Below, one piece after another: positions 2,264 through 27,355 of a DNA stretch of 64,000 bases (position 1 is its first letter; each line of letters begins with the position of its first letter). This DNA comes from a virus. Taxonomy: Duplodnaviria > Caudoviricetes. The stretch spans positions 32,001 through 96,000 of the IMG/VR virus record IMGVR_UViG_3300045594_000116; one strand, written 5' to 3'. Position numbers and translations under genes: made by a program. The notes below the pieces were generated by a model, which saw only the letters and a program-made list of their open reading frames with translations, made no database searches and was not told where the DNA came from.

Positions 2264-3490
2264 ATGGCTGTAAAGCGTGTAAGCAAAGTCATTACCAATC
2301 CAGAAGATATAAAGTATCTTGTTGGTTTAACGCAGCATGATGTAGAAAAGTTATCCTTTATCATGGATAACTTCGGTGTTTTCAAAGGAAAGAAAAGATT
2401 CAATCCGTATGATGTAGTAACAATCCCAGCAGGTTCTTATGGTCCTGAAGGCAAGAAGAATAAAAATTCTTTCACCACTACAGTCGGAAGATATGTGTTC
2501 AACAAGATGTTTATTGAACAGGACTTATTCGATTTGTTTAAGTACATCAATGAGCCAGTAACAGATGACTTAGTAAGTGATATCAGTGATAGAATTTCTT
2601 TTGCTCTATTAGAAAATCAGGTAGAGCTGCCAGTTCTTAAACGTTTCCTTATGCGTTGTCAGAAATGCCAACCATATTCCAATGTACTTGCTCCATCCTT
2701 TACTCTCAAAATGCTCACCATGAGTAAAGAACTCGATAAGTTTAAGAAGCAATTATTGACCAAGCATGCTAAAGCTATTGAAGCTGGTGATGAAAAGGTA
2801 ACTGCTGATATCGAGAAGGCTCTATTGGATAAAGCTAAAGAGATTCTTAAAGATGATCCATCTATGGATATCTATGGATCTGGAGCTAAAGGCTCATTCA
2901 AAAACAACTTCAAGAATCTGTTCGTCATGCGTGGAGCTGTAAAAGATCCAGAAGTCGGTAAGGGATATGACATCATTACATCTAACTATATCGATGGAAT
3001 TAGCAAAGATGACTATGTAAAAGCAGCTAAGAGCTTAGCAGCTGGACCTTATAGCCGTGCGGTTGCTACACGAGTTGGTGGTTATTGGGAGAAGTTATTT
3101 TTGCGTGCATTCCAGCATATGAAGTTAGGTCCTGCTGGTAGTGACTGTGGAACTAAGAAGACAATTGAGATTACACTCACACCTAAGAATATAGATATGT
3201 GGATGTATAACTACATCGTAGAAGGAAGCAAGCTTGTAGAGCTGACTTATGAGATGCGTAGCAAATATATCGGAAAGACTGTAAGGATGCGGTATAGCTC
3301 TAGATGCGAGAGTGAACAGATTTGCAACAAGTGTGCTGGAAATATGTTCTATAGGCTTGGTCTTACAAATGTAGGTACTGCTACTCCTCAGATTGCTTCT
3401 AGACTTAAGGTTATCTCTCTTAAGGCATTCCATGATTCTCAGGTTAGACTTTATGACATTGATGTAGCTGATGCATTCAGTGATGATTAA
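2264..3490 (+). CDS. RNA polymerase beta'-like subunit, C-terminal part (probably virion RNAP)
   Basis: TTVGR, SGAKG, SNYIDG, T..GGY, DCGT, RC...ICNKCAG and NVG...FH match beta' regions E-G. Late promoter upstream. Confidence 0.88.
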   Translation: MAVKRVSKVITNPEDIKYLVGLTQHDVEKLSFIMDNFGVFKGKKRFNPYDVVTIPAGSYGPEGKKNKNSFTTTVGRYVFNKMFIEQDLFDLFKYINEPVTDDLVSDISDRISFALLENQVELPVLKRFLMRCQKCQPYSNVLAPSFTLKMLTMSKELDKFKKQLLTKHAKAIEAGDEKVTADIEKALLDKAKEILKDDPSMDIYGSGAKGSFKNNFKNLFVMRGAVKDPEVGKGYDIITSNYIDGISKDDYVKAAKSLAAGPYSRAVATRVGGYWEKLFLRAFQHMKLGPAGSDCGTKKTIEITLTPKNIDMWMYNYIVEGSKLVELTYEMRSKYIGKTVRMRYSSRCESEQICNKCAGNMFYRLGLTNVGTATPQIASRLKVISLKAFHDSQVRLYDIDVADAFSDD

Positions 3491-4424: not shown

Positions 4425-7400
4425 TTACGTAAAGGTATACCTAAATGAAGCATTGTCATTGAATCCTACTTTATCATCCTTATGAAGAGTAACCAATGAC
4501 TTTGTAACTTCCCTAGATTTCATATAGTCGAGTTTGCTTAAAGAAACAATTGTATCTTTAGTATCGTTAAACCTGATTGTAGATGTATCTGGATCGTTAC
4601 CTATCGTAAAGTCTACGTTCATCTCATGAAGAATAACCTTATATGACTTAAAGAAATTAATCATAGTGAACAGATACTGGAGGAGATATTCGGCTGACAC
4701 GCCAGGGAACTGATTGTAGATATACTTGAACTCTTTAGAATCCAGATACTGCTCAAGGATATATACGATATCTGAAATAATCGTAACTATCTGGTTCTCT
4801 CTAGATTCTTTATCGTCAATCGATGTAATTGAAATGATAGAAGTATACAGTACATTGTCTTCTTCTTTCAAGAATTCAGTATAGGTAGGGGCTATTGTAC
4901 CATCTGCAAGTTTAAAGAACTCGAGATTATACTTCCATACCATTAGACTATCATACATCTTTTTCCATATGGAATAGATATCATAGTTTGGAGCTTCTCT
5001 CATTCCATGAACAATCGTCTTCCAAACGCTCTTGTTAGTCTTATAGATCTTGACAAACTCTTTCATATCTGGAATCTGTGTTTCTTCTTCCATAAACCCA
5101 AATACATCATAATCTGTCCAGAGCCTTCTATTATCCAAAATATACTGCTTTAGAGCCCCTAAGTCAGATCTAAAGTTAAATCCTTTTACCCACATTGCCT
5201 GAGTAGGAGAATCCATAATTTTATCGGTTATCCCGCTAAAGTTATGAGCCAGAGCCGTCATATACACGAACAGATCAGCTAACTTAAATTTCTTATTAGG
5301 AGAGATGGTGGGGATTTCAAACGTCAACAAGTTCTCTTTGAATACGTCGTCATAGAGCATATTATAGAAATAAGGAATCTGAAAAGCCATCTCAGTAAGA
5401 TCAACCACATAATCTATTGTCATATATTTGGTTCTTGCATAGTTAAATGGTCTCTTAAGTATCTGAGCTTTCAAAGCCTCATGAACATTATCGACATTGT
5501 CATCTCCATCCCAGAATTTATCAGATAGAGTAACGCTATCATATGTACGTACTCCCTTCTGATTCTTTAAGTATTCTAATGGATGCTTACTATCCAAAGG
5601 AATTCTTACGAACTTAAGATCAGCATCTTTACTGAAATCTTCAGTAGATTCAGTATTGATGTATGGTGCATAGTTCTTGTAGATAAAGGTAAACGTCATA
5701 GATGAATATTGCTTTACATCTGTAGGCTTGATAAAAAGCATGGTATTGTTCAGATATTCAAACTTACTTTCATCTATAAGCTGTTTGTTCGAATCGGCGA
5801 ATAACGGCCAATCATTCTCAATGTAATCATCGAAAGGAACCGGAACCTCTATATCAAGATCTGGATTTGGGAGGTTGAAGTTCAATGGAACCGTAAGTTC
5901 TTTTACCGTGAGCAATTTAGTCTGATCGATGAGATACTTATTATTGAATACGAATAATGCAACCAGTACATCACCTTTCTTAACTGTCATTCCTTCAACA
6001 GTTACATTGTACTGATTGATAGTAATTCTATCATATGGTACTAATCTAGATTTATGGAAGAGAAGGAATCCCTGTCCTGTTTCCAGATATGGATAGAATG
6101 GGAAATTCAGATAGAATACTGATTGCCCATCGGATTCAGCAGTCATATACTGCTCTTTTATCTTTACGCTATTCTCAGATTCTGCATTATACATAAACGT
6201 CAGATTTACTCTCTGTCCTTTAAAAGGAAGAATATCTTTGTTCGTTATTGTTACCTTAGACTTATCAGAAGAAAGATAATAGTCTTTTCCTTCTTCCATG
6301 ATGTATCCATTTGAATCTATAAACAGCTGATTTCCTTTAAGGAAATAATTCTCAGTCGGATAAGATATATCGTACGTATCTTGATACTTAGATTGAGCTA
6401 CGCGATAGTCATGTCCAACTACGATATTTTCTTCTGTAGGTCCATAAATATAATGAATCTTCATTACTTCTCCAGGATGTAATCCGATAGCTATATCTCT
6501 GAACTGCAGCTTATTTGTATAAACGTCATAGTATTCATCTGATAAGAACCATCCTCTAAGCTCTACATATACTCTATATCCAAACTTAAGATACTGAGCT
6601 ATTGGAAACTGCAGATCAAATTCGCATTGAAAATAATCTGTAGCCACTATAGTTTGAACCGAATGCATAATATTTACAGGTGTGTAAATAGAGTGCTTAG
6701 AATACAAGAAGTTGAATGTAACAGCTCTTCCAGCAAGCATCTTTATATCAGAGAGGTCAATTGTCCCATCAAGATTTATCGTATATCTTCTAGGGTCAAT
6801 CATGGTATTACCAATAGTAATAAAGAACTGATTACCATTGATAGTATAATTCTTAAATGGTTCAGGTATTGCAAATTTAGTTTGACCACGTACATAGGCG
6901 ACAGAATTTACTTTCTTAAAGTAAGTAACAAACTTGTTGCCATATATGTAAATCAACGTTATCGGTCGACCTTTAAGAACATAGTTGTCAATGACATCAA
7001 TAGTCTTATCATTGATTGTATAGAAGTTAGGATTGAGCGGATGCCCATCCAATACCACTATCACTTGATTTCCATCGATAAAATAGCTTGAATATGGAGC
7101 ATGGAATTCAAGAGAGTTGCTGGTAGCAACTATATCTTCATATACCATATTCACTCCATTATCTTTATCTGGAATGAAGTCTGTAGTCATTGTAGTTTTA
7201 TCATAATAGAATTCATATTCTATTTCAGAATGACCAGCATTAGAGTTATTTAAGAACCTAATCTTGTCATAGTTGTAGATCTCATAGTCTATATTCTCTA
7301 CCAATTTATGTCCATCTAAGAAAATGAATAAGACATTGCCTTTCTGTAAAAACCATGAGAAAGGAAATGGAACCGTATCATTCGTAATAGTGGCTTTAGT

Positions 7401-22954: not shown

Positions 22955-23707
22955 TTATTTCCTCCCTTTTCTAAACTCTTCATAAGCATCAATAACTTCT
23001 TTAGCTACATCTGCTCTTTCTTTTACATCATACCCATTCTCGACTGCAGCTGTATTAAATGATACAGTGATATTCACTTGCTTTACTTCTTTAGCCGGAT
23101 AGCAGAGGTGTGCGAAATCAAAGGCGTCAAATTCCTCTTTTACGTACATCAGATACTTTAGATCAGATTCGTGAATATCATTCTGAGAATGCTTAGCAGT
23201 AACTTTGTCTTTAATGGCATTACTAGAGCTAATCATCTTGTATACCAGATCAGGCGTTGGAAGTTCAAATGCATAAGCAAGTTTGCTTATTTCATTAGGC
23301 AATTCAGAATGAATGATACCATTCGCATAGAACGGAGAATCTTCATCGTCAGATGCATTTTCTTTCATCCATCCAAGACGATAATAGAGATTGGAAAACC
23401 AATATCTATCCATGATGAGAATTCCACCATTGTCTAAATGCCTCTGCCCGATCTTTTTCATATAGTCGAACATATCAACCATATAAAGACTGCTGATAGC
23501 ATTACTGGTAAGATCTTCCTGAACACCATATCTACCAGAAAGATACTCAGTTACAAAATATGATGCCTTACTCTGATAACGTGGGAATGATACAAGTTTT
23601 ACATCATGCCCATATTTCTGCTCGATGTGATTTAATAAAACTTTACTGTTCGTTTCTTTAAAGGAGCAATCAAGCCCCTCAAATACGATAAGTTGTCCTT
23701 TACGCAT
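22955..23707 (-). CDS. tmk: Thymidylate / deoxynucleoside monophosphate kinase
   Basis: LIVFEGLDCSFKET (variant P-loop), SFPRY, DRY..S..Y, PDL and IHE. The GGAGG RBS supports the start at 23707. Confidence 0.8.
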   Translation of the reverse strand: MRKGQLIVFEGLDCSFKETNSKVLLNHIEQKYGHDVKLVSFPRYQSKASYFVTEYLSGRYGVQEDLTSNAISSLYMVDMFDYMKKIGQRHLDNGGILIMDRYWFSNLYYRLGWMKENASDDEDSPFYANGIIHSELPNEISKLAYAFELPTPDLVYKMISSSNAIKDKVTAKHSQNDIHESDLKYLMYVKEEFDAFDFAHLCYPAKEVKQVNITVSFNTAAVENGYDVKERADVAKEVIDAYEEFRKGRK

Positions 23708-23767
23708 ATTCTTATTACCTCCTATTGGTTTACTTAATTGTAACGCGTATAATAATTTTGCACAGAT

Positions 23768-23795
23768 AACCCCTATCCAATTAAGGATAGGGGTT
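23768..23795. terminator. Terminator-like hairpin ending the putative ncRNA
   Basis: aacccctatcc-aattaa-ggataggggtt. Confidence 0.65.
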
Positions 23796-23799
23796 AAAC

Positions 23800-24364
23800 T
23801 GTGTAAGATAGCATAATTCATTTAGGGTGGGATGTTTGCACCGTCTCGAACTCAATCGATTATAAGCGGTACTTCTAAAAAGTTATCTACGTTTGCTAAC
23901 GCTAGTCATCATGAATTTCAAATATTTGATCTGGTATGTGCATTATCGGGATCAATCGAAATCCGGAAAGTCAGGTGATTCACAAGAGATAACTAGAGCT
24001 ATGATAATAGCTCTATAAAAAATAAATCAGCGTGCGCTGATTGAAAGACATAAAGAAGCCGGCCGGCGCCAATATGGCCGGCCTCTTATATAATCCGAGT
24101 TTTAGATTCGAAGATCTCGGAACTTCATTTAGCCGCACACAGCAGCCTTTTGTCGGCAAGTACGCCGACTGATCGGCTACGATCACTCGTAGCCCGTACA
24201 TAATACCACCCGAATCATCACGAGTGGGATTTTGAATCATACAGCGCCGATTTCCCGCTATCAATGCCTAGTACCTTAGGGTGGCTTCATGGACGGATCA
24301 ATTTCCAAAGCACACAAACCGTATGATAACTATTGGCTATGCGGATGCGGATCTTTGTATGATT
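23800..24364 (-). ncRNA. Candidate large structured noncoding RNA (about 350-600 nt), family unassigned
   Basis: GC-enriched gap with no credible ORF and many hairpins. A GUGA (GNRA) loop and G-U pairs favour the minus strand. Late promoter ACA-TAGATG-TAA at 24363-24374. Confidence 0.65.
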
Positions 24365-24402
24365 ACATCTATGTTTGATACAAATTATTTTTTACAAAAG
24401 TT

Positions 24403-24431
24403 ATCCCTCTACCAGCCGAAGGTAGAGGGAT
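24403..24431. terminator. Palindrome-family terminator
   Basis: atccctctacc-agccgaa-ggtagagggat. Confidence 0.7.
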
Positions 24432-24546
24432 GTTGTGAAGGAATACTTGCAAAGACTGAACTTTCATATCATATTTCCGAAACAGTAATAGACAAGAATT
24501 GAGCCGATTCTTTTCTATTACATATATGTCAGTATCATATATATTT

Positions 24547-25356
24547 TTACAAATCCGACATCGTGGTTGTTTCGCATTCTCCGATAAAGATATCATTAGT
24601 TCCATCATCGTTAGGCTGACGTTCTATGGTTGATTTATCAGAGAACTGAATCTCATATCTATAATCGTCAATATCATACATGAATATCTCAGTTGCTGGA
24701 GCTACGAATGGTTTAGTACCATCGTCTTTCGGCAGAATAACTTTGCTCAATAACTCCAAGAAGTCTTCTATATCTTTTGGAGTATTCAGCATATTGTCAC
24801 GGAACCGTACAGCGATAATATCTTCTCTGTTTAAATCACCATGCTTCATGATAGCAGATACTGCATCAAGATCTGTACGAATTACAACAGAGTCATTCGT
24901 TTCTACTCGACTCTCTTTAATGAAGTCTTCCATATCTTTAGATATAGAACCATCGATATTCTCGAGATAGCATCCCTGATGCCATTGAATGAATGCAGAT
25001 GCAATCTTCATTCTAGGCCCAATTCCATATTTCTTGATATCTGTAGTGGTTACTTCTTTAACAGCTTTCTTGTAGATCAATCCTGTACAAGAATCATCCG
25101 GTTCTCTGCTTAATACTTCTCCATTTGGTATGATGGTATAGATATTACAAGCCGGTATCGAATTGTCGTTGTCCATATCTTCCAGTATATGAGATGTAAT
25201 AAGAACGTATGTCGGAATGATCTGATCTTCCAATGAATCTTTATGGCATTCTATTGCATACAACAGCTCTGCAAGATTCTTAGAGATAGTCCTTCCCGAT
25301 AAAGGGCACTTGTCGTTAGTCTGCCCAGATGTATATACGTATATATTGATTACCAT
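24547..25356 (-). CDS. Hypothetical protein
   Basis: 269-aa ORF with a GGGGG RBS-like element. Confidence 0.75.
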   Translation of the reverse strand: MVINIYVYTSGQTNDKCPLSGRTISKNLAELLYAIECHKDSLEDQIIPTYVLITSHILEDMDNDNSIPACNIYTIIPNGEVLSREPDDSCTGLIYKKAVKEVTTTDIKKYGIGPRMKIASAFIQWHQGCYLENIDGSISKDMEDFIKESRVETNDSVVIRTDLDAVSAIMKHGDLNREDIIAVRFRDNMLNTPKDIEDFLELLSKVILPKDDGTKPFVAPATEIFMYDIDDYRYEIQFSDKSTIERQPNDDGTNDIFIGECETTTMSDL

Positions 25357-26460: not shown

Positions 26461-27320
26461 AAATACATGATAACTCCTAAGTGAGTTATCATGATTACTT
26501 GTGTCAAATATCCTAAATCTCTTATATCAAACTTTAAGTCTATAAAGAAAGTAGACTAGATACAAGAGAAAATAGTAATTCTAAATGTAAAAAATTAAAA
26601 CTTACACGACAGATAGATAGGGGGAGCATATACAACCAGCAGCAAACAACCCGCACTCTGTTTCTATTTCCAGGATAAAGAAGCGTAAATACATGATAAC
26701 TCAGTAGGAGTTATCATATCTCTTGTGTCAAATATCCTAAATCTCTTATATCAAACTTTAAGTCTATAAGAGTAAGTAATCTGGAATAGTAAGAGAAAAT
26801 ATAAAAAATTAAAAGTTACAGTACAAATAGATATTGGGGAGATGGATAGACACCAGGTAGCAACAACAGCCGCAGCCAATTATCCAACCTAGGAGAGGGT
26901 ATCGAGATATAGGAGAAGAAATGATAAGATATGATGATAACTCATAGTGAGTTATCATCTATCATATTTCTCTTATATCAAACTTTAAGTCTATAAAGAA
27001 AGTAGACTAGATACAAGAGAGAAATACCAATCCTAAATGTAAAAAATTAAAACTTACACGACAGATAGATAGGGGGAAGCATATAGAGCCAGCAGCAAAC
27101 AACCCGCACTCCGTTTTCAATCCAGGATAAAGAAGAACCAAATACACGATAACTCCTAAGTGAGTTATCGTATCTCTTTTGTCCTAAATCTCTTATATCA
27201 AACTTTAAGTCTATAAGAAGTAAGATATCCTGATATAAGAAAAAATGTAAAAAATTAAAACTTACACGACAGATAGATATGGGGGAGGCATATACAACCA
27301 GCAGCAAACAACCCGTGTCC
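26461..27320. repeat. Four imperfect tandem repeats of about 210-245 bp; candidate replication origin or structured RNA array
   Basis: Units start near 26461, 26687, 26931 and 27140. Each has GATAACTC-N5/6-GAGTTATC, TCTCTTATATCAAACTTTAAGTCTATAA, AAAAAATTAAAA(C/G)TTACA, a G-run and CCAG(C/GT)AGCAA. Confidence 0.92.
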
Positions 27321-27355
27321 AAATATTTTTTTTTGTAAAGAAGGATGATATCCAG

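Follow-up and report, generated by a model that had tools for sequence, protein, structure and literature searches.

A probable large structured RNA gene upstream of tmk in an AR9-like jumbo phage

The locus and its setting

The window, the 64,000-nucleotide stretch of DNA analysed here, is part of a 229.5-kb virus record that is 91% complete. Among the encoded proteins are split RNA-polymerase beta subunits; their best matches among isolates are in the Bacillus phages AR9 and PBS1 at 37%, and the phage is an AR9-like jumbo phage. Close strains come from wastewater-type samples. No tRNA genes were found in the source record. On the minus strand, a gap flanked by an ORF of 269 aa (25356-24547) and the thymidylate kinase gene tmk (start 23707) contains two stand-alone units, which we call RNA A (~120 nt) and RNA B (~600 nt). 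Two relatives, L005 and L006, carry comparable units at the same place. The features of the gap are as follows.

24547-25356, minus strand: gene of the 269-aa protein, which lies upstream of the RNA slot in every relative
24403-24529, minus strand: unit A, with late promoter (24529-24518), predicted RNA (24519-24403, ~120 nt) and terminator (24431-24403)
24364-24375, minus strand: AR9-type late promoter AACA-N6-TA of RNA B, by motif; the same motif is found in L005
23797-24364, minus strand: body of RNA B, a predicted large structured non-coding RNA (~565 nt; ~600 nt including the terminator)
23767-23796, minus strand: closing 12-bp hairpin, the putative terminator of RNA B, of the gene-end hairpin type of this phage
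23730-23741, minus strand: separate late promoter of tmk (ACA-N6-TAA), 3' of the RNA B terminator
22955-23707, minus strand: thymidylate kinase gene tmk, the downstream neighbour (Pfam PF02223; homologues of ~250 aa)

Both flanking genes deserve a brief description. A mechanical tmk ORF (22955-23821, minus strand) starts at 23821 and crosses the terminator, and the JGI gene calls take tmk in this long form of 288 aa; the true start is at 23707, behind AGGAGG. The 269-aa protein belongs to a small phage-only family with 19 representatives and gives a confident multi-domain model (pLDDT 83), with neither a family nor a fold match (best fold Z 4.7). A tie between this protein and RNA B was considered and dropped, as the protein is present without RNA B in the relative L053.

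Boundaries of the predicted transcription unit

An exact AR9-type motif lies at 24375 (ACA-N6-TAA from 24374). The AR9 late consensus is AACA-N6-TA/G, with the final base serving as +1 (PMC5312081). The predicted +1 of RNA B is 24364 and the RNA would start with AAUCAU, a start also seen in L005 behind the same promoter motif and in L006 behind a variant of it. Across the genome, 51 of the 92 copies of ACA-N6-TAA are intergenic, compared with only 7-14% for spacers of 4, 5, 7 or 8 and with 9% of the genome being intergenic. ACA-N6-TAA is a genuine promoter motif in this phage. Both components of an AR9-type late transcription unit, the AACA-N6-TA/G promoter and a phage multisubunit RNA polymerase, are found here. 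At the other end, hairpins of the closing type have 55 gene-end placements across the genome, and the hairpin closing RNA B is retained in L005 and L006 though its sequence differs. The loop of this terminator (window 23784-23779) is inverted in strain L029, a micro-inversion.

A sequence-only reading of the window had proposed this promoter, the closing hairpin (23796-23767) and an upstream terminator (24431-24403), all of which are present. The same reading took late timing as a hint of a morphogenesis or virion role. The late motif does not point to morphogenesis, because AR9 relies on this motif for all of its non-early transcription (PMC5312081) and here it also precedes tmk. The separate promoter of tmk, identical in L006, lies downstream of RNA B and thus argues against RNA B being a tmk leader. 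Since RNA B has its own promoter and terminator and tmk is served separately, RNA B likely acts in trans.

Folding and anatomy

The RNA B region has a folding energy of -190.7 kcal/mol and beats all shuffles on both strands, with z -6.2 on the minus and -4.5 on the plus strand (-5.1 vs -4.0 without the terminator). The minus strand is the better-folding one in all three homologues (window, L005 and L006). The gap had been described as GC-enriched, which is accurate to a modest extent (47% vs 39% for the genome) but only for the 5' 345 nt of RNA B, the 3' part having 36%. No conserved ORF was found in RNA B on either strand. A small ORF at 24264-24013 was rejected as a gene; it has no ribosome-binding site, is frameshifted in strains and is not retained in L005. 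RNA B would adopt an architecture of hairpins on a string, with A/U-rich linkers and three conserved T-loop-like heptamers. The predicted elements are listed from 5' to 3'.

24235-24364, minus strand: 5' domain with P1 (5' end paired with 24243-24235), P2, conserved internal loops and a variable insert
24228-24237, minus strand: T-loop-like heptamer 1, UUCAAAA (UUCAAGA in L005), by pattern only
24025-24228, minus strand: local hairpins P3-P10 with A/U-rich linkers
23881-24015, minus strand: core module with hairpin P11, helix P12, the RAAUCACC internal loop and a variable inner stem
23838-23872, minus strand: stem P15/P16, the most conserved element, with 2 changes in L005

In the 5' domain, P1 pairs nucleotides 1-9 of RNA B with nucleotides 122-130. 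L005 changes P1 once from A-U to G-C and P2 once from U-G to U-A, and the loops are conserved. Heptamer 1 has an A-U closing pair and overlaps the end of P1, heptamer 2 is borne by the loop of P8 (24112-24106), and the GC hairpin P9 (24085-24053) is followed by U-rich sequence in the window and L005 alike. The core module consists of P11 (24015-23994) and P12 (23994-23987 with 23888-23881), which encloses an internal loop with RAAUCACC (23981-23974) opposite GUUAG (23900-23896). In P12, L005 differs by four two-sided changes, and L006 has yet another pair of complementary sequences, the third. The P15/P16 stem combines a self-complementary loop RAUCGAUU (23861-23854), conserved with no covariation, and a T-loop-like bulge G-UUCGAGA-C (23851-23843), and is followed by an unconserved tail and the terminator. 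A search for pseudoknots returned no loop-loop complementarity of at least 6 bp common to the window and L005, the only two alignable lineages.

The minus-strand stems named in the sequence-only reading all occur at the places given, namely a hairpin at 24194 and stems at 24227/24212, 24169/24157, 24120/24099, 24083/24067, 24042/24031, 24015/24002 and 23994/23888. A proposed switch fared less well. The repeat CCACCCUAA is present at 24284 and 23830, but at chance level, a repeated 9-mer arising in 50% of shuffles. In the window the three pairings of the CCACCCUAA switch are isoenergetic, but the alternative pairing with GGGUGG finds no backing, the repeat being missing in both divergent homologues.

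A division of the locus at a hairpin and U-run (24042-24016) had also been suggested. L005 has no U-run there, and the downstream half is without a promoter yet carries the best-conserved motifs, so that this split is not upheld. P9 is the better candidate for an internal partial terminator, if there is any. RNA B could then represent a precursor or read-through product yielding two pieces, a 5' RNA of ~315 nt that stops at P9 and a 3' module of ~240 nt. Each piece would work on its own, as a small regulator or by binding protein. The U-rich tail of P9 in both genomes would fit such a division, as would the GC contents of the two halves (47% and 36%), the finding that no conserved covarying pairing joins them and the 3' module alone being common to L006. 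However, a second promoter is absent, P9 has a loop of 8-11 nt and G-U pairs where the terminators of this phage are perfect and short-looped, and both halves keep their order and spacing in L005. We consider two separate RNAs unlikely.

Conservation in strains and divergent homologues

Among 11 near-identical strains, 3.9% of RNA B sites are variable vs 10-24% of third codon positions. Strain variation also bears on whether the region might be a cis-acting leader or attenuator of tmk-thyX, or a DNA-level hairpin array without functional RNA. Among low-frequency variants, G-U and A-C changes on the minus strand are about equally common, which would be compatible with either, as would the good folding on both strands and the position directly 5' of nucleotide-metabolism genes. 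Yet at the two sites where a variant is fixed in all 11 strains, the pair is preserved as G-U on the minus strand. The promoter and terminator are oriented, there is no conserved antiterminator, the late promoter of tmk behind the RNA B terminator is itself conserved, and relatives express tmk without such a leader. A leader or DNA element is thus improbable.

L005 carries a syntenic homologue of 674 nt with 62% identity in aligned columns; its tmk is 53% identical. Independent folds of the window and L005 have 62 base pairs in common, compared with 29±8 for same-column mutants (maximum 45 in 60 simulations) and 3 for random columns. In hand-registered helices, 14 two-sided, 4 one-sided and 0 broken changes were counted among 84 pairs, a count biased by the helices being author-chosen. 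Projecting the window structure on a plain MAFFT alignment kept 24 of 77 changed pairs vs 28 expected, which is not above chance, and the well-aligned blocks kept 5 of 8 (p 0.22). The test fails to reach significance because variable stems misalign. As the alignment gave no excess, covariation rests on the fold comparison and the hand registers; within these two lineages it is supportive of the predicted fold.

In L006, a 699-nt unit with z -11.8 and the AAUCAU start occupies the same slot. Its common part with the window is a 45-nt module comprising P11, P12 and AAUCACC opposite GUUAG, which is the best local match between the two and was equalled in 0 of 500 shuffles under blastn scoring. 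The P15/P16 element is missing. A profile HMM and a covariance model of the RNA B 3' half both missed the L006 RNA, and homology is therefore tentative.

The promoter motif, terminator type, folding, constraint among strains, fold conservation and the lack of a conserved ORF together suggest that RNA B is very probably a real stand-alone non-coding RNA gene. The claim of such a gene in the sequence-only reading is borne out by a late promoter, a bounding terminator and a structure conserved in the syntenic homologue L005. We infer its transcription and strand from these signals. Contigs from wastewater RNA libraries cover the locus as scattered fragments, which fall on coding and non-coding DNA equally, and are probably DNA carry-over. 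Because of this even coverage, they neither support nor exclude RNA B expression.

Distribution and contents of the slot

RNA B is accessory and clade-restricted. It was found only in giant phages of one small, wastewater-associated group, and its three carriers form one well-supported clade in the tmk tree. A blastn search with the window and L005 RNAs gave no match in 50,697 phage records. Scanning viral, metagenome and genome collections for its motifs gave nothing, or chance matches in ORFs and unrelated contexts, and no convincing match to the covariance model of the 3' half emerged from 12 other phage records. Behind the homologue of the 269-aa gene, relatives carry other contents. One to three small late-promoter units are present in L007, L011, L013, L045 and L067; L008 (6249-6325, minus strand) and L010 (1362-1438, minus strand) have a tRNA-Met(CAU) gene there, with a late promoter to itself. 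L051 has a GC-richer folded stretch of ~400 nt (2804-3200, plus strand) directly behind a 144-aa ORF, with no Rfam match and z -2.5 over the wider region. The slot is empty in L053 and L054. Such an accessory, fast-turning slot, holding a tRNA, other RNAs or nothing, is as expected of a host-conflict locus.

Comparison with known RNA families

Rfam searches of the window and homologues, at gathering and permissive E-value thresholds, returned nothing except the tRNA in L008, in agreement with the earlier statement that no family could be assigned to RNA B. The ROOL model (RF03087) had no match at E<=10, and control genomes likewise gave none. The GOLLD model (RF02032), covering the conserved 3' domain, found no match at E<=10 in the genome that encodes RNA B, nor in the window, L005 or L006. 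A resemblance to these RNAs had been suggested from size and phage context, and these hold. RNA B shares with ROOL and GOLLD (PMC12286853) the size of ~600 nt, a phage-encoded stand-alone gene, a self-complementary loop and the lack of a known function. A tRNA gene occupies the RNA B slot in relatives (tRNA-Met in L008 and L010), though the record with RNA B has none itself. The likeness does not extend to sequence models or pseudoknots, neither of which was detected, and RNA B differs further in its jumbo-phage late promoter and very narrow distribution. Its hairpins on a string contrast with the closed ornate fold of ROOL and GOLLD.

RNA B might nevertheless work like ROOL, GOLLD or OLE as an RNA-only multimer or nanocage assembled via kissing loops. 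Besides the similar size, phage context and RNA-island slot, the loop RAUCGAUU is conserved, and the P1 3' strand has two possible partners, the 5' end and an internal AAUCA, whose pairings lie within 2-6 kcal/mol in both the window and L005. The internal AAUCA could thus strand-swap with the P1 5' end between monomers. Against assembly of this kind stand the missing ROOL and GOLLD matches, the lack of conserved loop-loop complementarity or pseudoknots, the long variable single-stranded linkers and the loss of the palindromic stem in L006. A multimer therefore seems rather doubtful.

Other families of structured RNA were searched with similar outcomes. RNase P type B RNA (RF00011) gave no match with positive controls, and the 5' end of RNA B pairs with nucleotides 122-130 rather than with the 3' end. 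For tmRNA, ARAGORN and RF00023 were negative with positive controls, and neither a CCA end nor a tag reading frame was found. A Y RNA would be accompanied by Ro60; the 91%-complete record has no TROVE gene (PF05731) and Rfam returned no match. Reverse-transcriptase-associated RNAs (retron, DRT, group II intron) would sit beside a reverse transcriptase gene; the record has no PF00078, and the adjoining genes are tmk and that of the 269-aa protein. Likenesses by eye to group II intron domain V, RNase P CR-I/CR-V and the tmRNA 5' part were discarded, as the required partner strands are missing. RNA B does share T-loop-like heptamers with closing pairs with the T-loop RNAs that imitate the tRNA elbow or bind to it (RNase P S-domain, T-box, Y RNA and the tRNA-like domain of tmRNA), but differs by having no RNase P or tmRNA match, CCA end, tag frame or TROVE gene. 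A looser parallel is provided by lnc001 and lnc002 of Staphylococcus phage K, which are 0.6-1.1 kb long and lie beside tRNA genes (PMC9241854). These are also intergenic RNAs of a large lytic phage with no known function (PMC9241854). Their transcription was shown, one from an early promoter (PMC9241854), whereas that of RNA B is predicted. RNA B had no sequence match to them in the phage collection searched. By the tests run, RNA B would belong to an uncatalogued family of large phage non-coding RNA; it is not GOLLD, RNase P, tmRNA or Y RNA, and probably not ROOL.

T-loop-like heptamers and possible roles

The heptamer pattern UUCRARW occurs three times in RNA B vs 0.44 expected (P about 0.009, for a pattern chosen post hoc). 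All three have counterparts at the corresponding positions of L005, and two of them are flanked by a closing pair; heptamer 2 has none, and L006 has one heptamer only. Neither a D-loop partner nor a protein partner was identified. T-loops build and recognise the tRNA elbow (PMC4810234, PMC4919913). We tentatively favour RNA B as a trans-acting accessory scaffold or decoy, made late and presenting tRNA-elbow-like T-loops, because the heptamers are conserved and a tRNA gene can take the place of RNA B in the slot. This reading is plausible, if well short of probable. Transcription by the non-virion RNA polymerase of the phage would begin at 24364 and stop at the terminator near 23765, for an RNA of ~600 nt. 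The product would fold into a closed 5' domain, about ten local hairpins, the helix-enclosed AAUCACC/GUUAG module and a terminal T-loop-like stem. The T-loop-like elements may present tRNA-elbow-like surfaces or clamp onto them, and RNA B might tie up host proteins binding tRNA or structured RNA, such as translation or anti-phage factors, in middle to late infection. It may dimerise via the self-complementary loop. Taken further, a linear hairpin array with several T-loops could act as a tRNA clamp or as a multivalent decoy of the tRNA elbow, and would then define a functional class not yet described among phage RNAs. Such an RNA would shield phage translation from tRNA-targeting host defence and be interchangeable at the locus with a real tRNA gene. 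We regard this extension as quite unlikely.

The conserved core module invites another reading, in which RNA B is an antisense regulator whose AUCACC loop imitates the tail of 16S rRNA, thereby blocking ribosome-binding sites of GGUGAU type. AUCACC is present in all three homologues, and GGTGAT occurs in the ribosome-binding region of 11 of 196 phage genes. Against phage start regions, however, the best duplexes do not surpass those formed with shuffled segments, and the motif is enclosed in a helix-bounded internal loop. We give antisense regulation very little weight, the least among the readings considered.

RNA B adds an uncatalogued large structured RNA to the AR9-like jumbo phages; within the literature searched, almost no non-coding RNAs are described for AR9-like isolates. 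The locus marks a swapping of RNA genes among relatives (tRNA-Met, small RNAs, RNA B or none), which is the pattern of a host-conflict gene. If the T-loop decoy or clamp were true, it would provide a testable function for one large phage RNA, in a class without known function. The immediate impact is limited by the narrow distribution, the uncultured host and transcription inferred from sequence.

Tandem units and other elements of the region

Four imperfect tandem units of ~230 nt lie in an AT-rich gap of the window (26469-27330, plus strand) and nowhere else in the genome. Each has a hairpin, a 27-nt identical core and a late-type promoter followed by a G-run. The units sit where transcription diverges and GC skew turns, and are a candidate for a transcription-primed replication origin or a small-RNA array. 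Similar promoter/G-run starts are found in L008, L011, L012 and L013. With RNA B only 2.1 kb from this array at the GC-skew turn, and an RNase H gene within the same conserved block, RNA B could be a replication-associated RNA, a pre-primer or origin regulator comparable to ColE1 RNA II, with the phage RNase H as its processing enzyme. RNA B is, however, transcribed away from the array and stops at its terminator. It has no conserved G-tract and no sequence in common with the array, and it is absent from most relatives, which retain the G-run units. A replication role is very unlikely.

Further non-coding elements were seen in relatives. L014 has a 1.06-kb gap upstream of tmk (4867-5928, plus strand) with late promoters and a different structured region, which had no Rfam match at gathering score. 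A second apparently structured non-coding element is common to L005 (1-300, minus strand) and L006 (1-330, minus strand), upstream of DUF5662 and divergent from it; it was not seen at the matching place of the window. RNA A has 0 variable sites in the 11 strains, among which its 5' hairpin is invariant. In the window, L005 and L006 the stem of this hairpin differs around an invariant AUCGGCUCAAU loop region, and a UUCCUC/UUCCUU tract resembling an anti-SD sequence lies 3' of it. An RNA A-like layout recurs in the small units of L007, L008, L011, L013 and L045.
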